Assembly: GCA_047946875.1 (NCBI GenBank)
Contig: CP181398.1
Coordinates: forward strand, 713,041-777,040
Direction: 5' to 3'
Length of the DNA stretch: 64,000 nucleotides
From: Candidatus Kerfeldbacteria bacterium
Lineage (GTDB): Bacteria; Patescibacteriota; Patescibacteriia; UBA10025; JAHIVO01
Positions 11,074 through 25,222 of this stretch are shown in pieces. Each line of letters opens with the position of its first letter. The first letter of the stretch is position 1. Under the pieces are notes generated by a model that searched no databases, had not been told where the DNA came from, and was given only the letters and a program-made list of their open reading frames with translations. The position numbers were made by a program, and so were the translations under genes.

Positions 11074-11150
11074 ATATATATATTATAACGAAAAAACTAC
11101 AATAAAAAAAGGATATACAATACTTGCATACCCTTTATAAAATAAATACT

Positions 11151-12053
11151 CTACTTTATTGAGCTACTTATACCAACTAATACGTCAGAAAAACTCCGAT
11201 TGTCACGATTAATACCAATTGGTAACCTAGGAATATCATTACAAGTAATAACTTTTCCTGACAATCTCTCTATCTCTTCCCATAGTTCACAACTTAAACC
11301 AATGATGAATTTGGAATATTCAACCATATAATTAGTAGGAATAGAAGCACTTTTACTAGGATTACCAAACGGTAAACAATATGGCAGAGAAATGTCCGGA
11401 TAATATGGAATAATACTATTACCCTCCATATAACCAACTGTCTTTCCTGACAATGGTACACCGATGAAAAAATCTCTCTCACAGAGCCAATCTATGACAT
11501 TATTAAATTCATAAACTGATTCAATCTCAAAAGTTGAATTTTTTCTAATAAATTGATTATTACACCAGTCTATCATAATACCGATAATACTTTTTTGAAC
11601 ATTCAAGCCTTTTTCCTTCATCAAAGATATTATCTGGTATAAAGTATCTCCGGAGAAACATCCATCATCAATAATAATAATTGGCTTGTCTTTCGGTAGA
11701 TTGTTTAACTGATCATCTATCGAGATACAACCAGGGCGGTTAGATAAGCCGATTTTTTTTAGAGTATTAATATCAGCAATTCTATTAATCTCTAAATAAC
11801 TATCAACCTCACAATATACTTGATCAATAGAAATAATAATCGCGTCGTTATTCTGTTGAATTTTCTGTTTCAATTGACTACTTAAATCTTCATAACTAAT
11901 CAATACTAATTCTGTAAACATTGAATTTAGATATTTAATTAATCGCTGCTGAATACTGACAAAAAAGTTATGATCAGGAATTTTATAATCAACCCCTCTA
12001 GTCCAGCGTTTCATCAAATATTCTAAATCTTCAGTAATAACATACCGTCTCAT
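11151..12053 (-). CDS. Phosphoribosyltransferase (PRTase)-domain protein, function unknown
   Basis: PRPP-binding-like motif IIIIDDGCFSGDTL. 300 aa. First gene of a tight minus-strand operon. Confidence 0.4.
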   Translation of the reverse strand: MRRYVITEDLEYLMKRWTRGVDYKIPDHNFFVSIQQRLIKYLNSMFTELVLISYEDLSSQLKQKIQQNNDAIIISIDQVYCEVDSYLEINRIADINTLKKIGLSNRPGCISIDDQLNNLPKDKPIIIIDDGCFSGDTLYQIISLMKEKGLNVQKSIIGIMIDWCNNQFIRKNSTFEIESVYEFNNVIDWLCERDFFIGVPLSGKTVGYMEGNSIIPYYPDISLPYCLPFGNPSKSASIPTNYMVEYSKFIIGLSCELWEEIERLSGKVITCNDIPRLPIGINRDNRSFSDVLVGISSSIK

Positions 12054-12601
12054 TGTACTCTCCTTTTTAATAAGTACTTAAACCAATATTCATGAAAAAT
12101 TCCTACAATCTGACTACTCGGAACTTTTATTCCTGTTTGCTGAAAACCTAATTTTTTATTGATTGAAATTATAGGAAAATTATCTTCTCTCATTCTTGTT
12201 AAAAGAAGTGTGGACTTACCAATATCACTCAAATGTATAAAAATATCTTGCTTAAGTAGTGTGCCCACTCCTAAATTTTGAAATTCAGGACTAACACATG
12301 TTTCTCTGAGCCAGATTAATTTACAACCCACAAATTTTTTGGGAAAAACCCCTAATATTCCACCTCTCTCATTATTTAATTCTTCAATTGTCATACTGTT
12401 CCACCAGGTTGCACCAACCACCTGACCATCAATCTCCGCAACCAAGCATTTAAATCCTGACTTTAATCTTTGAATATTCCACCGTCTTTTAACTTCTTTA
12501 ATCGATAAATCTTCATACCAAGGAAAACCAGAAAATGCTTTTCTATAAATAATTTCAATACCAATAACATCATTCACTGTATATTCTCTTATCTTCATCA
12601 T
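12050..12601 (-). CDS. GNAT family N-acetyltransferase
   Basis: Acetyl-CoA binding motif region (CVSPEFQNLGVGTLL). 4-nt overlap with the upstream gene. Confidence 0.7.
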   Translation of the reverse strand: MMKIREYTVNDVIGIEIIYRKAFSGFPWYEDLSIKEVKRRWNIQRLKSGFKCLVAEIDGQVVGATWWNSMTIEELNNERGGILGVFPKKFVGCKLIWLRETCVSPEFQNLGVGTLLKQDIFIHLSDIGKSTLLLTRMREDNFPIISINKKLGFQQTGIKVPSSQIVGIFHEYWFKYLLKRRVQ

Positions 12602-12631
12602 TAACTCCTTCTATTTATTTTTTAAAGAACT

Positions 12632-13165
12632 TTATTTGTTAACTACTTTAATCGCCATATTTACAGCTTCTGCTGGTGTTCTAGCTGATAATATCTTTAA
12701 CCTCTTTCTGCTATCTAAAAACGTACCCACTAATTTGTCGGTCCATCCCCCTGTCCCGATTAATGCAACTATTGGAATATTTAACTGATAACCAATAGCA
12801 ATCTCTGTTAGCGTTCCTGATCCTCCACTTACAGAAATAATAACGTCACATGAATTTACCAATACAAATTCCCTACCTCCACCACGCTCTAAACCGGTAA
12901 CAATGATAATGTCTGTATTACCATCCTTATCCCAAATATCTTTCTTCACCCCATAAGTTACCCCTACTGTCAGACCACCTTGTTGCTTAGCGCCTCTAGA
13001 TGCCGCCGTTGAAAGAGAATCATAATCTTTTTCTGCTCCGAAGACGGTAATATTTTTTGATTTTGCTATTAACCTACCTAACTCGAACGCTGATTTTTCG
13101 ACCTCTGAAGAATATTTAAGGTCTGCTCCAGAACCTATCACTCCAATTTGAATTTTTCTTTTCAT
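12632..13165 (-). CDS. LOG/TIGR00725-family Rossmann-fold protein (possible nucleotide N-glycosidase)
   Basis: GxGxxG N-terminus (IGVIGSG) and PGGxGTxxE-like motif (VSGGSGTLTEIA), as in LOG / lysine-decarboxylase-like proteins. Confidence 0.7.
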   Translation of the reverse strand: MKRKIQIGVIGSGADLKYSSEVEKSAFELGRLIAKSKNITVFGAEKDYDSLSTAASRGAKQQGGLTVGVTYGVKKDIWDKDGNTDIIIVTGLERGGGREFVLVNSCDVIISVSGGSGTLTEIAIGYQLNIPIVALIGTGGWTDKLVGTFLDSRKRLKILSARTPAEAVNMAIKVVNK

Positions 13166-13173
13166 ACTTTTTT

Positions 13174-13875
13174 TTAATTAATATTTATCTTCTCCATTTT
13201 GTAACAAGTAATATCCACATATCGATTTACTAATAAGGCAAAGAACTTCTCCCCCTTTATATTCACCTCTTCAAACTCTTTAAATTTTCCCTCTTTGTCC
13301 TCATAATCTTTTTTTAAAAGTTTCCCATAAACTCGAAAGAATGTTTTCTGATCTTGGCTCAAATCCTTTTTTAAAAAATCTTTAAGACTACTATATAATT
13401 TATTCTGATTTTCTACCGAATTTTTTGAACCACATTCAATCTCTACTCCACAATCTACAAACTGAGTTAATGGTCCAGGTTTCTTTAGATTCTTTGGACT
13501 CCAAATTACTATGTTCTGAAATGGCAATAAAGTTGATAATAATAAATTTTCTTTTTTTGGATTTGTTACGATTGTAAATATTCCAGTCTTAGCTGGCGTA
13601 CCATGAATATCAATAACATAGTCATATTTTTTAAATACTTGCATGAGTTCATACGCTCGACGTATTTCGTATTTAAAGCTATCTTTATTCCCCGGTGCTA
13701 CTCTATTTAAATCCGCGTCAATAAATCTTTTATTCTTTTCCAATGCCTCAGGATTTGAAATCTTCCAATCAAATCGAGATAAATTTTTTTGATCAGTAAG
13801 TTTTTTTAAGATTGGAATTGTAAACCCTTCATTACCGTGCGTTGCTGCTAAAAATAATATTTTTTTTCTTTTCAT
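13174..13875 (-). CDS. AstE/AspA-family (succinylglutamate desuccinylase / aspartoacylase-like) zinc hydrolase
   Basis: N-terminal HGNEG-type metal-binding motif (LFLAATHGNEGFT) and DIHG further on, typical of this carboxypeptidase-like family. Confidence 0.5.
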   Translation of the reverse strand: MKRKKILFLAATHGNEGFTIPILKKLTDQKNLSRFDWKISNPEALEKNKRFIDADLNRVAPGNKDSFKYEIRRAYELMQVFKKYDYVIDIHGTPAKTGIFTIVTNPKKENLLLSTLLPFQNIVIWSPKNLKKPGPLTQFVDCGVEIECGSKNSVENQNKLYSSLKDFLKKDLSQDQKTFFRVYGKLLKKDYEDKEGKFKEFEEVNIKGEKFFALLVNRYVDITCYKMEKININ

Positions 13876-13903
13876 ATTTTTTAAATTAATTTAAAAAGTA
13901 AAG

Positions 13904-15031
13904 TTATGCATCTTTAATAAGATCACACATTCCACAAGCAACACATCCTGCTTTATCAGTTGAAATTATACCCACTTTATCCATTAAACGTTTTGAAAAA
14001 TATAAAACTTCCAGAAAATCTTTCCAATTTACAGTTGGAGCAAATGGATAATTCGGAATATCTTCAAAATATCGTCCAGCTAGTGGTGAGGGAATAACCC
14101 CTATTTTAATTACTTCCTCTATACCTTGTTTGAGGCTAGCTATTGGCTCAGTTCCAACTACAAAACATGTTGACACCCTTCCAACACCAAATTTTTTTAT
14201 GGCACGTTTAAAGGACGCAATATATAAATCTCTTTTACAAAATTTATTTTTTCCGGGAATTAATTTTGCACGTACTTTTTCATCCCAACATTCTAAATTC
14301 ATCATCAAACTAGATACTCCTGAAGCAGCTAATCTATCTATCCAGTTCAAATCTTTTGGTGGAGTAATTTCTACTGCAATTTGTAATTTTGGGTATGCTC
14401 GTTTAACGGCCTCAACAACTGGTTGAATAAACTCAATACCCCTTCCATCTGAAAAAGTCATACCTCCATTTATTGTTAAACCCCCATATTGGTCTACAGG
14501 TATTTTTTTTAATGCTGAAAGTATTAAAGCAGGTTTTTTTCTAATTAAAACCAAAGATCTATTTTTTAATGATTTGTTAATTACACAAAATTGACATTGA
14601 ATGTTTTTTGAAAACAAAGCACAGTCTTCATAAATTGAAATTGCTAATTGACAGTTATGAACAGTAACGATCTGTGTGATATTAAAACCATTTACATTAA
14701 ACTTATACCATGATGGTGGTGTAAGAGCTTTGCCTCTACATAGTTCTTTATTCTTTTGAGAAATAATAATATTTCTTGAGTCCGAAGAAGCAATAGAAAC
14801 CTTTAAATCAACCTTTCTTTTTTTATAAAATGGCGCATTCACAAATAAACAATTTGAAAGTAGCATTTTTCCTCCCGAACTTAATCCACCTCTTTTTACA
14901 TTAGATGGATTTTGATCCATAAATAATTTTTCAACAGATTGTGTAAAATTAACTCCTTCACACAACATTTTTGCTTTTAATTCTATTAAATTTTTTGATT
15001 TAGTCATATTTTTATAATTTAAAAACCACAC
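13904..15031 (-). CDS. Radical SAM-like enzyme with non-canonical Cys spacing
   Basis: Cys cluster C-x11-C-x9-C-x2-C (NCQLA...EDCALFSKNIQCQFC), then a GGE-like glycine motif (TINGGMTF) ~40 aa later, then a TIM-barrel-like core and an extra C-terminal CxxCxxC (CVACGMC). Confidence 0.45.
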   Translation of the reverse strand: MWFLNYKNMTKSKNLIELKAKMLCEGVNFTQSVEKLFMDQNPSNVKRGGLSSGGKMLLSNCLFVNAPFYKKRKVDLKVSIASSDSRNIIISQKNKELCRGKALTPPSWYKFNVNGFNITQIVTVHNCQLAISIYEDCALFSKNIQCQFCVINKSLKNRSLVLIRKKPALILSALKKIPVDQYGGLTINGGMTFSDGRGIEFIQPVVEAVKRAYPKLQIAVEITPPKDLNWIDRLAASGVSSLMMNLECWDEKVRAKLIPGKNKFCKRDLYIASFKRAIKKFGVGRVSTCFVVGTEPIASLKQGIEEVIKIGVIPSPLAGRYFEDIPNYPFAPTVNWKDFLEVLYFSKRLMDKVGIISTDKAGCVACGMCDLIKDA

Positions 15032-15156
15032 ATAATAAAAAACCTCTTTTTCAGTTAAAGAGGTGTGTGGTTTACTACTTAATTAGAAACAAACCCTTTA
15101 ACTAAATAAAAAAGAGGCTTGTCTATGATGATTAATTATAATTTTAAAATTTTCCA

Positions 15157-15456
15157 TTATTTTAATTTTAGTCTATTGATTATTAATTGATAACCTCCTT
15201 TACCCTGGTTAATCCAATTAGCTACTCTTGCTACAGTGGTAGTGCTAACTTTTAATTTTTCTGAAATATCTCTATATGAAACACCTTTCACTATCAACTT
15301 AACCATTTGCCACCTATCACCAAGATCTGTCATTTCTTCCAAGGTACATAAATCTCTAAAAAACTTATTACATTCATCTTTGGTTTTTAATGAAAGTATT
15401 GCTTCGAATAATTCATTATTCTTCTTGACATCCCATTTAATATTTTTCTTAGGCAT
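15157..15456 (-). CDS. YerC/YecD (TrpR-like) family helix-turn-helix protein
   Basis: 99 aa. Conserved C-terminal ...YRDISEKLKVSTTTVARV... HTH typical of the TrpR-related YerC/YecD family. Confidence 0.7.
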   Translation of the reverse strand: MPKKNIKWDVKKNNELFEAILSLKTKDECNKFFRDLCTLEEMTDLGDRWQMVKLIVKGVSYRDISEKLKVSTTTVARVANWINQGKGGYQLIINRLKLK

Positions 15457-15562
15457 AGTATTATTTTGTATTACTGTGTTAACGCATTAATACAATAGCA
15501 TAACTATATTTATAGTCAAGTGACAGTTATCCACAAATAAGCTATTATGTTAAAATATAATT

Positions 15563-16009
15563 ATGCCAACAATAAATAAAAACAAACAAGCATATTTTGA
15601 TTACGAGGTTTTAGATGAATTTGAAGCCGGGATTGTTTTGAGTGGTTCAGAAGTTAAATCTATAAAAAATGGTCAAATTAACTTAAAAGGTAGTTATGCC
15701 ACTATCAAAGGTAATGCTCTATGGCTGATTAATGCCCATATTAGTCCTTACTTACAGTCCTCTACTCAAACATCCTATACTCCAACTCAAGATCGAAAAC
15801 TATTATTACATAAAAAAGAAATTGGCTCACTTATAGGCAAACTGAAGACTAAGGGCTTGACAGTATTGCCACTTTCTGTTTATACTAAAGGGAGTCTAAT
15901 AAAGATAAAAGTAGGTGTTTGCCGTGGCAAAAAGGCTCATGACAAGCGCCAGCTCATTAAAAAGCGTGAAACAGATAAAGATATTAGACGATTATTAAGA
16001 AATAAGTAA
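15563..16009 (+). CDS. smpB: SsrA-binding protein SmpB
   Basis: AYFDYEVLDEFEAGIVLSGSEVKSI... matches the SmpB core. The K/R-rich C-terminal tail fits too. Confidence 0.9.
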   Translation: MPTINKNKQAYFDYEVLDEFEAGIVLSGSEVKSIKNGQINLKGSYATIKGNALWLINAHISPYLQSSTQTSYTPTQDRKLLLHKKEIGSLIGKLKTKGLTVLPLSVYTKGSLIKIKVGVCRGKKAHDKRQLIKKRETDKDIRRLLRNK

Positions 16010-16034: not shown

Positions 16035-16437
16035 GGGAGCGTTTATAATCGACAGTGCTATCACTATAAAAATCGCAAACCATCCAATTCTATTTATATG
16101 ATGTAAAACTATTAGTAGAAATTACACAAATGCCAAATCATTTGTAAGCAATGTGAAGACTGCATTTGCTAACGCATTTACACCTTCATTTGCGCCCGTA
16201 GTTGCCTAAAACCAACTGCCATCCTGCTCTTAATGTCTGATAGAGAGATCCAGGGTGTTATAATTCAGACTAGATATCAATTTTATCCTTTTAGTAGATA
16301 TTTAAAAAACATAAAGGATCGGATTGTTGGATTTTGCTTGTTATATACCAATGATCTCAAACAAAAAATAAGCTAAGTTTGTAGAAGTTTTTATATAATA
16401 ATACTAGACAGGGGTGCGACCCCCCTCGCTTCCACCA
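16035..16437 (+). ncRNA. ssrA: tmRNA (SsrA), ~403 nt
   Basis: The 5' GGGAGCG pairs with 3' CGCTTCC, including the G3:U70 alanine identity pair. The D-loop analogue UUUAUAAUCGAC resembles E. coli AUUCUGGAUUCGAC. A T-arm AGGGG-UGCGACC-CCCCU is followed by the acceptor strand and CCA at 16435-16437. The gene sits directly downstream of smpB. A candidate tag frame ends ...AFTPSFAPVVA* with stop at 16207-16209. Confidence 0.8.
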
Positions 16438-20768: not shown

Positions 20769-22490
20769 ATGGCTACAAAGAAACGTAAAAAAATTGCCCT
20801 AATATCAGTGGCAAACAAAAAAGGTATTATCACGTTTGCCCGATGGCTCGTAAAGCTCGGTTACATGATACTTGCCTCAGGCGGTACAGCTAAGAAGCTT
20901 AAACAAGCTGGGATCCCTGTAACTGATACTTCTGACTTTATCGGAGATGCGCATGCTAAGATGATCAATCGTATCGCCACAAACAAGAAACATAAAATCC
21001 CACCGCGGGTTTTAAAAGCGATTCGCAAAGAAATTGGTGGCATCATTCTAAGTCACCGTGTCGCGACCCTATATCCACAGATACATGGAGGAATTTTAGC
21101 ACAGGACACTGAGCAACATCTTAATGATCTGGCTAAAATCTGCGCCCAGTGGATTGATATTGTCTGTGTTGACTTCTATCCACTTGATGGCGAAATAGCT
21201 CGTCCAGGGTCAGATCGCTTCTCTGTAATAGAGAAAATTGATGTCGGTGGACCAACTATGGTCAATGCTACAGCTAAATCAGCTGAAGATGGACGAACTG
21301 TGATCTGTGATCAAGTTGATCGTATACGGGTTATTAAAGCGATCAAAAAACATGGCGAAGTTCCTCTAAAACTCCGTCGTGAGCTGGCTGAAAAAGCCTT
21401 TTTCAAAGTGGCTGAATACTATCTCTCAGCTTCTCGATACTTAAGTGGTGGAAAGTACAATGGCGTCTTAGGTCGCCTACGCTCACTATGTAAGTACGGG
21501 GAAAATGCTGCTCAGACACCAGCCGGCTTATATGAGGTTGATGATAATGATTCTTTAGCACTACATAAATTCGAGATGATCGAAGGATGTGCACCAAGCT
21601 TCATTAATTTTACCGACTATAACCGTGGTCTTCAGGGTATTACCCATGCCATTGCTGCATTCCGTAAAAATAAATGTAAAGCAAAATACTTTGCTTTCAT
21701 TTACAAACATGGTAATGCATGTGGCGGTGCTTATGGTAATAACAAAGCCGAAGTATTAAGGAAAGCAATAGCCGGCAACCCACGAGCAGCCTGGGGTGGG
21801 ATTATCATTGCCAACTTTACGATTGGAGCAAAAGAAGCGGAGATAATCAGGACTCACAAAACCAAAAAGGTGGATCGCATAATAGATGGTATTCTTGCGC
21901 CATCAATTTCCATACCAGCAATTGAACGACTCAAGCGCGCTAAAGGTGCTTGTCGTATGTTGGTTAATCCAGCTCTCAAGTCCCCCTCTATGGACACTGG
22001 AAAAATCATCCACACGCTCCGCGGTACATTCGTACTGCAACCAAACTATGAGTATGTATTTGATTTTAACCATCCAAAAGTTAAGCAATTTGGAAAAATG
22101 ACTCTGCGACAAAAGTCTGATTTCCTCCTGGCTTGGGCGATCTGCGCTACTTCAAGTAGCAATACGATCACAATAGTTAATAACTGCATGCTAATCGGTA
22201 ATGGTACTGGTCAGGACGATCGAGTCGGAGCAGCCCAGCTTGCAACAAAGAAAGCACGTACTTTCAAGCATATGCTAAATGGATCTGTCTGCTGTAGTGA
22301 CTCATTCTTCCCATATGTTGATGGTGTAGCAACCCTTGTCCGCGCTGGTATTATCGGCATACTAACCGTTTCTGGATCCAGAATTAAAGGTGCTGGAGAC
22401 AAAGCAGTTAAGAAATTCCTTATTAAGAAGAATGTCTTACTAGTATGGATTCCGGTAGCCATCGGTCGTATCTTTTACGGTCACTGTTAA
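20769..22490 (+). CDS. purH: Bifunctional AICAR transformylase / IMP cyclohydrolase (PurH family), divergent long form
   Basis: N-terminal MGS-like IMPCH domain (ALISVANKKG...ASGGTAKKL...HGGILA). AICARFT motifs IDVGGPTMVNATAKS, KYGENAAQ, YKHGNACGGAYG, AWGGIIIANF, IGNGTGQDDRV and SDSFFPYVDG all align to E. coli PurH. Confidence 0.85.
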   Translation: MATKKRKKIALISVANKKGIITFARWLVKLGYMILASGGTAKKLKQAGIPVTDTSDFIGDAHAKMINRIATNKKHKIPPRVLKAIRKEIGGIILSHRVATLYPQIHGGILAQDTEQHLNDLAKICAQWIDIVCVDFYPLDGEIARPGSDRFSVIEKIDVGGPTMVNATAKSAEDGRTVICDQVDRIRVIKAIKKHGEVPLKLRRELAEKAFFKVAEYYLSASRYLSGGKYNGVLGRLRSLCKYGENAAQTPAGLYEVDDNDSLALHKFEMIEGCAPSFINFTDYNRGLQGITHAIAAFRKNKCKAKYFAFIYKHGNACGGAYGNNKAEVLRKAIAGNPRAAWGGIIIANFTIGAKEAEIIRTHKTKKVDRIIDGILAPSISIPAIERLKRAKGACRMLVNPALKSPSMDTGKIIHTLRGTFVLQPNYEYVFDFNHPKVKQFGKMTLRQKSDFLLAWAICATSSSNTITIVNNCMLIGNGTGQDDRVGAAQLATKKARTFKHMLNGSVCCSDSFFPYVDGVATLVRAGIIGILTVSGSRIKGAGDKAVKKFLIKKNVLLVWIPVAIGRIFYGHC

Positions 22491-22639: not shown

Positions 22640-23644
22640 ATGAAAGCTCTCATTAGTACCAAACACTTTAACTTGTCGAATACTTACCCATTCTCTGAAG
22701 GAAAAGTAAGGGACATTTATAATCTGGATGAGCAACTATTGATCATCGCTACTGATCGTATTTCGGCATTTGATCATGTATTACCAACTCCCGTACCAGG
22801 ACGTGGCATAGTATTAACCGAAATGACTGTTAATTGGATAGATTTGCTGACAAAAGATATTGCCAATCTCAAAACCAAACTGCCAATTACTAATCATCTG
22901 GTTCATACCGATGTGGGAGAACTTCCTGAAATATTTCATCCGTTTGCTGATGAACTTACTGGTCGTTTCATGGTCGTAGAAAAATGTGACCCTATTCCAG
23001 CTGAATTAATCATTCGTGGGAATATTACAGGATCTCTATGGAAAGCTTATAAAAAAGCCGTTAAAGAAAATCCTGAAGCAACTACAGTAAACATCCTTGG
23101 TCATGAATTACCAACCGACCTTCAGGAGTCCGAAGAATTTCCTCATCCATTATTTACGCCATCAACCAAGGCGGAAGCTGGTCAACATGATGAAAATATC
23201 AGCTATGAACAAATGGTGATTATCTTCACCGAATGGTTGAAGAATAAAGAATATGATGTTACTGCCGAGGATCTAGCAATAAGCTGTCTAGATCTCTCAC
23301 TCATGCTCTTTACCAAAGCACGTGACAAAGCCAAAAAACTTGGCATAATCATCGCTGACACGAAGTTCGAATTCGGTCTCAAGGTTGTAGAAGGTATATT
23401 ATATCTTGTAATTATCGATGAGATCCTATCCTCTGACTCATCTCGTTACTGGCCGGCCGATGAATTTGCAATTGGCAAAAGCCAAAACAGCTATGATAAA
23501 CAGATTGTTAGAGATTATCTCAGCAAAGAACTCGAATGGGATGGGACTCTTCCAATTCCAGTTATACCTGATGAAATCGTTAAACAAATTATCGATCGTT
23601 ATCAAGAATGTATGACAATTTTATTCGATGAAAATCTTGACTGA
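22640..23644 (+). CDS. purC: SAICAR synthetase (PurC family), long form
   Basis: GKVRDIY...LLIIATDRISAFD is the PurC signature. 334 aa. Confidence 0.85.
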   Translation: MKALISTKHFNLSNTYPFSEGKVRDIYNLDEQLLIIATDRISAFDHVLPTPVPGRGIVLTEMTVNWIDLLTKDIANLKTKLPITNHLVHTDVGELPEIFHPFADELTGRFMVVEKCDPIPAELIIRGNITGSLWKAYKKAVKENPEATTVNILGHELPTDLQESEEFPHPLFTPSTKAEAGQHDENISYEQMVIIFTEWLKNKEYDVTAEDLAISCLDLSLMLFTKARDKAKKLGIIIADTKFEFGLKVVEGILYLVIIDEILSSDSSRYWPADEFAIGKSQNSYDKQIVRDYLSKELEWDGTLPIPVIPDEIVKQIIDRYQECMTILFDENLD

Positions 23645-23839: not shown

Positions 23840-25222
23840 ATGAATGCAAAACAAGGAACTGCATTAGCAACTGACAAGATTGTCACTCATTTCAAACCGC
23901 ACGCAGATGAATTTGTGGCAATATATTTACTGCGCCGTTTTGGCCAGGAATTATTCCCAGGAATTTCTGATGCAAAAATCATTACCAAGGACGGTAGTGT
24001 AAAACTTTACAACCGTAAAGGATGGTTGAAAGTTGGTATCGGTGAAGGAATTTTTGATGAACATGGTCAACTCAATTGTTGTTGCGCTGATTTGGTCGCT
24101 CAATACCTAGGCATTGATCATTTGCCAAAAATTATATTGCTACTAAAACACATTCGTCGTGGTGACCTTTTTGGAAAAAGTACCACCTACGATCTAAGTG
24201 AATGCATCAAAAACCTCAATCATGACGGATGGTCGCCTGCCAAAATAGAAAAATGGTTAGCAACTTTCCTAGATTGTTATTTTGATGATAAAACTATCAT
24301 CAAAGGATCTTCCGTTGATGACGATCACCAAGGATACATTTTCCCAATCAGTGATGGAGAAACAAGAACGTTGTTTTCTAACAACACTTTATACCGTGAC
24401 TGGTTGAAAAAGAAAAACCTAAAAAGCAATCAACCTGAAGTTAGCAAACTAACTAACAATCTTAACCAATTCACCAAACGACCTCCTTCAAAAATATTTG
24501 ATATTTGTGAAGGAGCATACTTGATAGCAGTCTATCTTGGTAAACTCGAGTCATTTACTTGGACTTCAGCAATATTTGAAGCCAGTAAAAACTATCAGCA
24601 AGAATTCCTTGAAGCTTGTGATATCGTCAAACCTATGAAAGTGATTGTAGTTAGGCCTTACGATAATTGCAATAAAGCTAATATTATCAGAATACTTGCA
24701 ATCGACAGGACAATAAATAGACAAGGAAACAAATGTCTCCTTAATGCAGCCAAGTTTCTCAATAAGAATTTAGATGTATTGGTTATCCAACAACCGAATG
24801 GAAGCATCCAAGTTTTTATTACAAATATTCATCTCATGCATCTATGGCCGATGATTGTCCGCGCAATCAGACTGGAAGAGATGGTAGTCAATGACATGCC
24901 TATAGATAGCATTATCACTGACTATGATGTACTTGCTCAGACGGGCAGTCTAACCGAATTACCTCAATTGCCTCTGTGGTATTTCCCAGCAAACGGGAAT
25001 GGTGACGGATGGGCGCTATTAAACGGTGCACTGACGTTACCAAATGTCATCCCAAGTAATATCTATTTTGATGAAATTGTTAACATCATTAAGACAATGA
25101 TATTCTACAATGATGACAAAAATACATGGCAAAACTATGCGGATAATCGTATAGATGAATATCATGATTCCTGCAACAAACCGTCTACCGGTAATTGCTT
25201 GGGTGATTATTCAGCTCTTTAA
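23840..25222 (+). CDS. Hypothetical protein (460 aa), Cys-containing, possibly a DHH-like phosphoesterase
   Basis: N-terminal THFKPHADEFVA loosely resembles the DHH motif I (HxxPDxDxxxS). This is weak, and no other family signature was seen. Confidence 0.4.
   Translation: MNAKQGTALATDKIVTHFKPHADEFVAIYLLRRFGQELFPGISDAKIITKDGSVKLYNRKGWLKVGIGEGIFDEHGQLNCCCADLVAQYLGIDHLPKIILLLKHIRRGDLFGKSTTYDLSECIKNLNHDGWSPAKIEKWLATFLDCYFDDKTIIKGSSVDDDHQGYIFPISDGETRTLFSNNTLYRDWLKKKNLKSNQPEVSKLTNNLNQFTKRPPSKIFDICEGAYLIAVYLGKLESFTWTSAIFEASKNYQQEFLEACDIVKPMKVIVVRPYDNCNKANIIRILAIDRTINRQGNKCLLNAAKFLNKNLDVLVIQQPNGSIQVFITNIHLMHLWPMIVRAIRLEEMVVNDMPIDSIITDYDVLAQTGSLTELPQLPLWYFPANGNGDGWALLNGALTLPNVIPSNIYFDEIVNIIKTMIFYNDDKNTWQNYADNRIDEYHDSCNKPSTGNCLGDYSAL

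Follow-up and report, generated by a model that had tools for sequence, protein, structure and literature searches.

The window analyzed here is a 64,000-nucleotide stretch from a Candidatus Kerfeldbacteria bacterium, a member of the candidate phyla radiation (CPR, or Patescibacteria) with a 1.31-Mb genome of ~32% GC. On its minus strand, at positions 11151-15031, five consecutive open reading frames (ORFs) encode a variant radical S-adenosylmethionine (SAM) protein, an AstE/AspA-like deacylase, a SLOG cluster 4 protein, a GNAT, and a type I phosphoribosyltransferase (PRTase)-like protein. As read from the sequence, these five genes form the 3′ portion of a longer transcription unit, predicted to start ~450 nucleotides (nt) further upstream and to run in the order promoter/operator, yerC, leader, attenuator, radical SAM, AstE, SLOG, GNAT, PRTase, and terminator. 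It is highly probable, from the sequence and from comparison with related loci, that this unit is regulated in response to histidine through an operator/repressor pair and an attenuator. For the enzymes themselves, we favor, with a probability of roughly 45%, the reading that they are the structural genes of a histidine-limitation-inducible unit that would restore histidine supply via a phosphoribosyl intermediate dependent on 5-phosphoribosyl-1-pyrophosphate (PRPP). The predicted features of the unit, in the direction of transcription, are as follows:

15492-15519, minus strand: promoter-like site found by a consensus scan (TTGACT, 16-nt spacer, TATTGT, with an upstream TG)
15468-15493, no strand assigned: operator-like palindrome GTATTAATGCGTTAACAC with a third half-site, overlapping the -10 box; presumed site of the YerC/HisR-like repressor
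15157-15456, minus strand: yerC/hisR-like gene of the TrpR family, 99 amino acids (aa)
15098-15157, minus strand: leader ORF of 19 codons, MENFKIIINHHRQASFLFS followed by a stop, with an ATG that overlaps the yerC stop (TAATG)
15036-15124, minus strand: attenuator RNA, with segment 1 at 15111-15124, segment 2 at 15085-15099, terminator stem-loop 3:4 at 15042-15064, and T6 at 15036-15041
13904-15007, minus strand: variant radical SAM gene, 367 aa
13174-13875, minus strand: AstE/AspA-like gene, 233 aa
12632-13165, minus strand: SLOG cluster 4 gene, 177 aa
12050-12601, minus strand: GNAT gene, 183 aa, with a stop that overlaps the PRTase start by 4 nt
11151-12053, minus strand: type I PRTase-like gene, 300 aa, the last of the five
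11108-11136, minus strand: terminator-like hairpin with a T-run, closing the unit ahead of argS

The five minus-strand genes and the gaps between them (-4, 30, 8, and 28 nt) were reproduced exactly from the ORF list as the initial annotation of this DNA had given them, and the co-transcription that it proposed is plausible. Four of its gene coordinates stand. The fifth gene, that of the radical SAM protein, had been taken in its longest ORF reading (13904-15031, 375 aa), in which the GTG at 15031 falls within the T-tail and outer stem of the hairpin upstream; for this reason, and because the deposited protein has 367 aa, we moved the start to 15007. The 3′ end of the unit is defined by the terminator-like hairpin after the last gene, beyond which argS carries its own TATAAT box. 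No upstream region had been taken into the initial annotation, so that the repressor gene, operator, His leader, and attenuator were all missed. It had also suggested that the placement next to argS might be coincidental; this adjacency is lineage synteny across a terminator, shared with L020, L021, and L023 and absent from more distant loci.

Two sets of related loci (labeled L002, L005, and so on) were compared with the window: (i) the neighborhoods, with 10-kb flanks, of radical SAM homologues that are 44-67% identical, in 19 genome loci from CPR bacteria and Micrarchaeota, and (ii) ten distinct PRTase loci (the window, L020, L021, L023, L025, L026, L027, L029, L030, and L031). The protein encoded first in the unit scored 92 bits against Pfam Trp_repressor and 82.8 bits against the NCBIfam model TIGR02531 (YerC/YecD; cut-off, 42.2), which places it in the YerC family. 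The YerC of Bacillus subtilis is HisR, which belongs to the TrpR family and represses genes for the biosynthesis and uptake of histidine; its published regulon comprises the his genes, hisXYZ, and yuiF, and a purified HisR homologue requires L-histidine to bind a 20-bp palindrome in vitro (PMC9413887). A YerC-like gene lies directly 5′ of the radical SAM gene, on the same strand, in 12 of the 19 genome loci and additionally in L028 and L033, giving 14 of the 17 loci that are bacterial; among the remaining three, one has no DNA upstream. YerC is also present at 6 of the 10 PRTase loci.

Taken alone, the promoter-like site is a mere consensus match, but related loci keep it at the same place with respect to the operator and yerC. 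The operator-like palindrome has its single match in the whole window at this position. A palindrome of the same type precedes yerC in L005, L009-L013, L015, L018, L020, L021, and L032, and in L013, L015, and L021 the leader is preceded by a second copy. In other loci the published HisR consensus, ACTTTA-N6-TAAAGT (PMC9413887), is found. Since the predicted palindromic operator lies over yerC's own promoter, autoregulation is implied. Directly 5′ of the yerC -35 box there is also a perfect DnaA-box-like motif, TGTGGATAAC (reverse complement, GTTATCCACA; 15526-15535, minus strand), which has no other exact copy in the 64 kb and occupies the same position 5′ of yerC in L005, L009, L010, L018, L020, and L021.

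Immediately behind yerC, the leader ORF contains tandem His codons, CAT CAT, at 15125-15130. In-frame HH or HHH was found in 11 loci (the window, L005, L009, L010, L013, L015, L016, L018, L021, L025, and L028), carried by a short ORF or, in L009, L016, and L025, by a C-terminal extension of YerC, and H-x-H variants occur in L002, L008, L032, and L033. The pattern CAYCAY is present in 11 of 20 such leader regions, against a background of 17.5% (P = 2e-4). The leader of L020 reads CAT CAA (His-Gln) in place of the window's CAT CAT. Two further arrangements of the leader were seen: the His-rich peptide forms the C-terminal tail of YerC in L009, L016, and L025 (also in L002, L026, and L033), for example ending in NHHHNPSFSGKG and a stop, and in L012 and L032 the His codons are in frame just past the yerC TGA stop, which could reflect read-through, re-initiation, or another reading of TGA.

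The RNA downstream of the His codons can adopt exclusive pairings. Calculated energies are -10.8 kcal/mol for hairpin 1:2, -14.3 for the antiterminator 2:3, and -8.0 for the terminator 3:4, which is followed by U6, and the region as a whole folds with z = -4.8 relative to mononucleotide shuffles. Segments 1 and 3 resemble each other (CCUCUUU), as do segments 2 and 4 (AAAGRGG). Because these segments are near-repeats, the unconstrained minimum free energy fold of the leader is a nested 1:4/2:3 structure, and the attenuator model is therefore based on sub-hairpin energies, masked folds, and covariation and not on a single fold. When the His codons and the downstream footprint of a stalled ribosome were masked, 2:3 pairing displaced the terminator in 10 of 12 loci (the window, L005, L009, L010, L015, L018, L020, L021, L025, and L028, with failures in L013 and L026). 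In a 10-locus alignment, 95% of the cells of the terminator helix are paired and four of its eight pairs show compensatory changes; none of 500 shuffles equaled either the paired percentage or the covariation score, and slid controls reached only 52-66%. No Rfam family was recognized in the region, the best match being a wrong-strand Bacteroid-trp hit with E = 0.17.

A short ORF with regulatory codons 5′ of segment 1, exclusive 2:3 and 3:4 pairings, and a U-tract are thus all predicted together, and the region reads as a histidine leader-peptide attenuator behind an autoregulated repressor gene. We had also considered the hairpin at 15064-15042 as a simple boundary between yerC and the operon; given the leader ORF and the alternative pairings, this was dropped, and the hairpin is taken as the attenuator terminator. 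A 10-bp outer inverted repeat, AAACCACACA...TGTGTGGTTT (15022-15073, minus strand; -18.4 kcal/mol), encloses this terminator and its T-tract, spans the spurious GTG "start" at 15031, and is conserved in L020. In operation, scarce His-tRNA would cause the ribosome to stall on the His codons and cover segment 1; segment 2 would then pair with segment 3, the terminator would not form, and transcription would enter the radical SAM-AstE-SLOG-GNAT-PRTase genes. With ample histidine, control would act at two levels, as the terminator would form and the repressor would close the promoter.

Relatives that lack YerC provide a further link to histidine. In each of the four PRTase loci without YerC, a match to a complete T-box (Rfam RF00230) lies directly 5′ of the gene for a nucleoside phosphorylase (PNP), as follows:

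L023:6009-6241, His T-box, full-length RF00230 match
L029:3472-3711, His T-box, full-length RF00230 match
L030:5007-5237, His T-box, full-length RF00230 match
L031:3832-4066, His T-box, full-length RF00230 match

These matches scored 86.7, 88.3, 92.6, and 92.9 bits (E ~1e-19 in local searches), narrowly short of the gathering score of 93, so that a default Rfam scan misses them. In each, the specifier position reads GAA-CAC-A, in which CAC is a His codon. A histidine-linked device is therefore found at 10 of 10 PRTase loci, namely YerC at six (five with a His-codon leader) and a T-box at four. Genes for histidyl-tRNA synthetase (HisRS) lie within the unit or beside it in L015 (where the radical SAM gene immediately precedes), L023, L026, L027, L029, L030, and L032, tRNA-His genes lie near it in L023, L027, and L029, and genes of the histidine ammonia-lyase (HAL) family in L023, L029, and L030. 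Three of these form what may be called histidine islands (L029:1-3400, L030:1500-4900, and L023:2750-5860), in which a HAL-family gene, one to three tRNA-His genes, and the HisRS gene stand directly 5′ of the T-box PRTase operon. It is an oddity that an enzyme family that degrades histidine should be encoded beside genes expected to be induced by histidine shortage.

Among the enzymes, the PRTase-like protein has a complete PRPP loop (IIIDDGCFSGDT / IIIIDDGCFSGDT), with the pattern of four hydrophobic residues, two acidic residues, and S/T-G-x-T. In 21 sequences, D129, D130, and G135 of the loop and the CERDF motif are invariant, and S134 is kept in at least 90%. Its Pfam scores fall just under the cut-offs (Pribosyltran, 24.2 against 26.3; PRTase-CE, 24.5 against 27), and a profile search of PDB sequences returned only PRTases and PRPP synthetases, weakly (E >= 1e-3). 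The AlphaFold2 (AF2) model has a predicted local distance difference test (pLDDT) score of 94, and Foldseek matched it in the PDB to XPRT, APRT, HGXPRT, and OPRT with a probability of 1.00 and E = 5e-5 to 1e-3. The target-normalized TM scores of 0.43-0.57 extend over ~150 of the 300 residues, so that the model supports a type I core fold with N- and C-terminal parts that are family-specific. The family is small, with 41 clusters among 5.8 billion proteins. As SLOG and PRTase-CE count as "conflict" domains, a defense-system reading was also tried; it was rejected, as PADLOC returned only an 18.8-bit PRTase_III-A match for this protein and nothing for the others.

The radical SAM protein carries its cysteines as C129-x8-C138-x2-C141 (Cx8CxxC) and not in the canonical CxxxCxxC motif, which explains why it scores 23.6 bits against Pfam Radical_SAM, under the cut-off of 29.5. 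It passes the NCBIfam model NF045502 (variant_rSAM) with 179.7 bits against a cut-off of 125. A C-terminal CxxCxxC, conserved in the alignment of homologues, suggests a second cluster. The AF2 model (pLDDT, 92) was matched by Foldseek to LipA, RlmN, MqnE, NifB, ThiH, HydG, and viperin (E = 3e-7 to 1e-4), and BlsE, the radical SAM enzyme of blasticidin S biosynthesis, was among the structural matches; a profile search of PDB sequences found no relative. The subfamily is narrow, with about six representatives at 50% identity scoring at least 280 bits, inside a wider variant radical SAM group of 171 representatives at E <= 1e-30. Membership in the MSMEG_0568/Nit1C family (TIGR04043) was rejected, as the protein scores 136.1 bits against a cut-off of 303.7 and the neighborhood differs; Nit1C genes were absent from all 21 loci examined.

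The SLOG protein belongs to SLOG cluster 4 (PF18306, 102.1 bits; cut-off, 26.3) and lies just under the cut-off of TIGR00725 (96 bits against 106.9). Its motifs GGGRE and GGSGTLTE are kept in L020 and L025. Its scores against PF03641 LOG (16.4 bits; cut-off, 27) and against the cytokinin riboside 5′-monophosphate phosphoribohydrolase model (25 against 300) place it outside the LOG family proper, although it is LOG-like, and we regard it as a candidate N-glycosidase for nucleoside monophosphates; our literature search found no characterized member of SLOG cluster 4/TIGR00725. The GNAT protein exceeds the cut-off of PF00583 Acetyltransf_1 (24.4 bits against 20.7) and has the CoA motif QNLGVG, with no equivalog passing (RimI, 25 bits against 86); an orthologue lies directly 5′ of the PRTase gene in L020 and L029 (E = 1e-46). 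The AstE/AspA-like protein exceeds that of PF24827 AstE_AspA_cat (49.2 bits against 25) and shows the zinc-ligand pattern (T)HGNE...DIHG. Both the AspA and the AstE equivalogs stay under their cut-offs (aspartoacylase NF002601, 84 bits against 180), and its 233 aa comprise the catalytic domain only, the C-terminal domain of full-length members being absent. Its orthologues adjoin the PRTase gene in L020, L029, and L031. All five domain calls of the initial annotation have endured, with qualifications: GNAT and AstE/AspA-like by their Pfam scores and motifs; PRTase by the PRPP loop, the weak sub-threshold Pfam matches, and the modeled fold; and radical SAM, as a Cx8CxxC variant, by the variant_rSAM score and the fold matches. 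The LOG call holds in the sense of a LOG-like protein of SLOG cluster 4, outside LOG proper.

Across genomes, the five genes do not behave as a fixed, conserved unit. Within 10 kb of the radical SAM gene, none of the 19 genome loci encodes the PRTase, GNAT, SLOG, or AstE protein at E <= 1e-3, except for a weak AstE-like match 3.5 kb away in L014. The neighborhood comparison that had been suggested as a check found partial sets elsewhere (L020, L029, L031, L025, and L011) and the full set of five only in the window. The closest relative, L020 (ArgS 91% and YerC 94% identical), has the order YerC-AstE-SLOG-GNAT-PRTase-ArgS-GT4-DUF167, and its lack of the radical SAM gene is ascribed to a clean indel because the flanks on both sides are nearly identical (window 13876-15035 against L020:6140-6180). 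The gene content at the ten PRTase loci is as follows:

Window: radical SAM, AstE, SLOG, GNAT, PRTase
L020: AstE, SLOG, GNAT, PRTase
L029: PNP, TIM barrel (AP_endonuc_2), AstE, GNAT, PRTase
L031: PNP, TIM barrel, AstE, PRTase
L021: PNP, TIM barrel, kinase-like protein, HAD, PRTase
L023 and L030: PNP, HAD, PRTase
L025: SLOG, PRTase
L026: HAD::PRTase fusion, then IUNH, then HisRS
L027: PRTase with a divergent YerC, Peptidase_S66, and a gene of no assigned kind

What recurs in this mosaic is predicted function. An activity that would cut the ribosyl-N bond accompanies the PRTase in 9 of 10 loci, either as SLOG acting on the nucleotide or as a phosphatase with a nucleoside phosphorylase or hydrolase. 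The AstE(-GNAT)-PRTase block is conserved in three lineages, and the immediate partner of the PRTase, by abutment, overlap, or fusion, is GNAT or, elsewhere, HAD. A SLOG-like gene stands between YerC and the radical SAM gene in L011, identified weakly (phmmer, 5e-5) and with no Pfam match.

On the radical SAM side, a HisG-like ATP-PRTase (Pfam HisG, 40 bits; cut-off, 25.5) lies between YerC and the variant radical SAM gene in L012 and L032. The associated radical SAM proteins are 48% (L012) and 26% (L032) identical to that of the window, the latter with the same Cx8CxxC and CxxCxxC motifs. Variant radical SAM proteins are thus partnered, by gene order and predicted fold, with PRPP transferases of two unrelated folds. 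In the archaeal (Micrarchaeota) locus L017, the radical SAM gene follows the gene of a PNP_UDP_1 protein orthologous to the PNP of the bacterial PRTase operons; it matches the PNP of the L029 PRTase operon (phmmer, E = 6.5e-80) and is, by eye, about half identical to that of L021. This suggests that part of the system has moved between CPR bacteria and DPANN archaea. A second, unrelated radical SAM protein (310 aa) is also encoded ahead of the variant radical SAM there (L017:8242-9962). Other neighbors of the radical SAM gene include a PurB-like lyase gene, which follows it in L002, and a TrpB-like pyridoxal phosphate enzyme (PALP, ~430-480 aa) encoded on the opposite strand, directly 5′ of the radical SAM gene in L006 (4456-5892) and 5′ of yerC in L018 (7623-8918).

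Genes under amino-acid or tRNA control of this kind normally raise the supply of charged tRNA, and the enzymes should therefore serve histidine supply. In the reading that we favor, the structural genes would be exchangeable modules: a variant radical SAM, a PRPP-dependent transferase, a cutter of ribosyl-N bonds, and an N-acyl transferase/deacylase pair. Because a HisG-like protein adjoins the variant radical SAM in two lineages, the PRTase is cast in the first step, where it would take HisG's role in the canonical pathway and use PRPP to place a phosphoribosyl group on a nitrogen of an acceptor of the purine or imidazole type. The radical SAM enzyme may then carry out a radical rearrangement or a dehydration of the phosphoribosyl adduct. 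More speculatively, this could be a 1,2-diol dehydration, which is the reaction type of imidazoleglycerol-phosphate dehydratase; AprD4 and viperin are radical SAM enzymes that perform a reaction of the 1,2-diol dehydration type. SLOG (or HAD with PNP or IUNH) might supply a free base for the PRTase to re-attach at another nitrogen or, alternatively, might recycle a nucleotide by-product such as 5-aminoimidazole-4-carboxamide ribotide (AICAR). GNAT would attach an N-acyl group to an amino-acid-like intermediate and AstE would take it off again, in the manner of arginine and lysine biosynthesis. The step order and the substrates are guesses, and we would not expect them to prove right as drawn.

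Several observations weigh against an enzyme set for histidine supply. On paper, an N-glycosidase acting after a PRTase makes a futile cycle, and the operon has neither an aminotransferase nor a dehydrogenase and is therefore not a complete histidine pathway. The leader is degenerate in some loci, with one His codon in L020 and L026 and none seen in L011 and L019, and no histidine signal is seen at the archaeal radical SAM loci. GNAT and AstE are confined to 4 of 10 PRTase loci. Finally, the regulated unit of L015 and L026 ends in hisS, so that hisS could be the real target and the enzymes its passengers.

The alternative that survives best, though we consider it unlikely, is a starvation-induced turnover and salvage of nucleotides, in which uncharged tRNA-His would serve as a general starvation signal and nucleotides would be split by SLOG (or HAD with PNP or IUNH) and rebuilt by the PRTase. 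In Escherichia coli, (p)ppGpp acting on PpnN and on purine PRTases offers a parallel. In its favor, the PRTase is paired with an N-glycosidase at 9 of its 10 loci, the PRTase core is nearest to purine and pyrimidine salvage PRTases, the PNP resembles uridine phosphorylase when its sequence is read by eye, PurH and PurC are encoded 6-9 kb away, and a PurB-like gene adjoins the radical SAM gene in L002. However, salvage leaves unexplained the histidine specificity of three different devices, the HisG-like partner of the radical SAM, the HisRS, tRNA-His, and HAL neighbors, and the roles of the radical SAM, GNAT, and AstE proteins; moreover, the PRTase family is rare and divergent, has extra domains, and is not a standard APRT, HPRT, or UPRT.

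The initial annotation had proposed a pathway, other than a canonical housekeeping operon, that builds or remodels a modified base or a nucleotide-amino-acid conjugate; we take this as a natural-product-like pathway unrelated to core metabolism. PRTase, LOG-like, GNAT, deacylase, and radical SAM types do recur in nucleoside-antibiotic pathways, LOG-like hydrolases among them; BlsE is a structural match, and the AstE-GNAT-PRTase block is conserved in three lineages. Yet the gene set is a mosaic in which analogues replace its members, it is not accompanied by transporter, resistance, or scaffold genes, and the hosts have genomes of the 1-Mb class. Control by histidine and tRNA-His sensors is moreover typical of aminoacyl-tRNA synthetase, biosynthesis, and transport genes. 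A pathway joining nucleotide and amino acid chemistry remains plausible as part of that proposal, although it is better framed around histidine; its separation from housekeeping fares badly, as the HisR-type repressor, the His attenuator, and the His T-boxes of relatives tie the genes to histidine and to tRNA-His charging. In its original form we hold it to be improbable.

Hardly better placed is an inducible detoxification of an antimetabolite that blocks HisRS, such as a histidyl-adenylate mimic. Here the induction logic fits, since inhibition of HisRS lowers His-tRNA and would open the attenuator or T-box. The GNAT (RimI-like by a weak match) might acetylate the toxin as MccE does, AstE or an S66 peptidase might cleave it as MccF does, and SLOG, PNP, or IUNH might destroy the nucleoside part; a Peptidase_S66 gene of the MccF family indeed follows YerC in L027, together with two HisRS-like genes. 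This leaves the PRTase and the radical SAM without a role, GNAT and AstE are found in 4 of 10 loci only, PADLOC finds nothing, and we know of no natural HisRS-directed aminoacyl-nucleotide, so that the case for detoxification is slim. Least credible of all is a function directed at tRNA-His, such as queuine/queuosine salvage with N-glycosidases freeing the base and a queuine-lyase-like radical SAM: tRNA-His carries Q34, Asn and Tyr codons, read by Q-tRNAs, also abound in the leaders, and a bacterial queuosine salvage route reportedly involves IUNH and a radical SAM enzyme (queuosine hydrolase and queuine lyase), but the leaders use both CAC and CAU, the repressor is HisR-like, the T-box specifier recognizes only tRNA-His, the HisG-like and HAL neighbors point to histidine itself, and no NCBIfam queuosine model was matched. 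None of these alternatives explains at once why the control is specific to histidine, why the radical SAM has a HisG-like partner, and why modules are swapped.

A wider reading, which we hold to be rather unlikely, would be that CPR bacteria and, via the radical SAM, some DPANN archaea have a PRPP- and radical SAM-dependent route to histidine or an imidazole precursor that replaces part of the canonical ten-step pathway. Its first step would be catalyzed by a type I PRTase-like or a HisG-like protein, and its control would lie with a HisR-type repressor and a His-codon attenuator or with a His T-box. The general view of CPR bacteria and DPANN archaea is that most amino acid biosynthesis is missing from them and that they depend on hosts. 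Should this pathway reading be true, it would mean a new way of making or salvaging histidine; should it be wrong, the regulatory finding remains and narrows the possible functions. Three independent histidine sensors (the HisR-type repressor, the His-codon attenuator, and the His T-box) converge on one uncharacterized enzyme set, and regulation of this kind has been used successfully before to assign functions to genes. Here it offers a testable way into four orphan families: the variant Cx8CxxC radical SAM, SLOG cluster 4/TIGR00725, the 300-aa PRTase clade, and the short AstE-like deacylase. The predicted elements also document leader-peptide attenuation and T-box control in CPR bacteria, including regulatory peptides that appear to be the tail of the repressor, and bear on how ultra-small organisms cope with histidine shortage.

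Elsewhere in the window, the genes on the far side of yerC form an ordinary housekeeping arrangement that is syntenic in L020 and L021, in which tmRNA (84.8 bits) adjoins smpB (16035-16437 and 15563-16009), followed by infC-rpmI-rplT and tRNA-Asp. Farther out, 20769-22490, 22640-23644, and 23840-25222 encode PurH (AICAR transformylase/IMP cyclohydrolase), PurC (SAICAR synthetase), and a 460-aa protein without a Pfam match; the late purine genes purH and purC, whose products handle imidazole ribotides including AICAR, are those that lie 6-9 kb from the operon.

Literature searches on YerC with radical SAM, histidine biosynthesis in CPR and DPANN, T-boxes in Patescibacteria, PRTase-CE, and SLOG cluster 4 found no description of this system, and His T-boxes were nowhere mentioned together with Patescibacteria in the literature searched. 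Three of its enzymes have known counterparts from which they depart. Like HisG, the PRTase is a predicted PRPP-dependent transferase under histidine control, and the HisG-like proteins of L012 and L032 partner the variant radical SAM as the type I PRTase-like protein does in the window; in contrast to HisG, its modeled fold is that of type I PRTases, which is unrelated. The SLOG protein shares with the LOG/PpnN nucleoside-5′-monophosphate phosphoribohydrolases a Rossmann-like SLOG fold and motifs of the GGGR and GGxGTxxE types, and its slot can be taken by a phosphatase with a nucleoside phosphorylase or hydrolase, as expected of a nucleoside monophosphate N-glycosidase, whereas its membership in SLOG cluster 4/TIGR00725 sets it outside LOG proper. 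For the radical SAM protein, MSMEG_0568 (NitD) is the nearest named family, with the variant cysteine motif in common and a GNAT near both, but the window operon has no nitrilase, AIR-synthase-like gene, or flavoprotein.

The regulatory devices are closer to precedent. In likeness to the HisR of Firmicutes, the repressor exceeds the YerC/YecD equivalog cut-off, a palindrome lies over its own promoter, and several CPR loci bear the ACTTTA-N6-TAAAGT-type consensus; the window and many other loci differ in using a predicted operator of the form GTATTAAY-RY-GTTAAYAC, and the regulon is unlike the published his operon, hisXYZ, and yuiF (PMC9413887). The attenuator resembles the his leader attenuator of E. 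coli and Salmonella and the His attenuators of Firmicutes in placing a leader with consecutive His codons directly 5′ of an exclusive terminator/antiterminator and a U-tract (PMC9413887). It differs from the E. coli/Salmonella leader in having two His codons and not seven, and from the known His attenuators in a leader ATG that overlaps the repressor stop, in a peptide that in some lineages is the repressor tail, in the absence of an Rfam family match, and in the genes controlled, which are not those of his biosynthesis. Known T-boxes are matched at full length, and with a His specifier, ahead of four related PRTase operons, although the window itself has none and the scores of 86.7-92.9 lie under 93; the genes controlled there (PNP, HAD/AstE, and PRTase) fall outside the usual T-box classes, which are aminoacyl-tRNA synthetase, biosynthesis, and transport genes. 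The regulatory parts are thus known in kind, as HisR-type repressor, His leader attenuator (here coupled or fused to the repressor gene), and His T-boxes, whereas the enzyme set under them matches no described histidine regulon or pathway and is unprecedented in content. In combining a repressor with an attenuator, the predicted control of this unit recalls the E. coli trp operon, which is likewise controlled at two levels.

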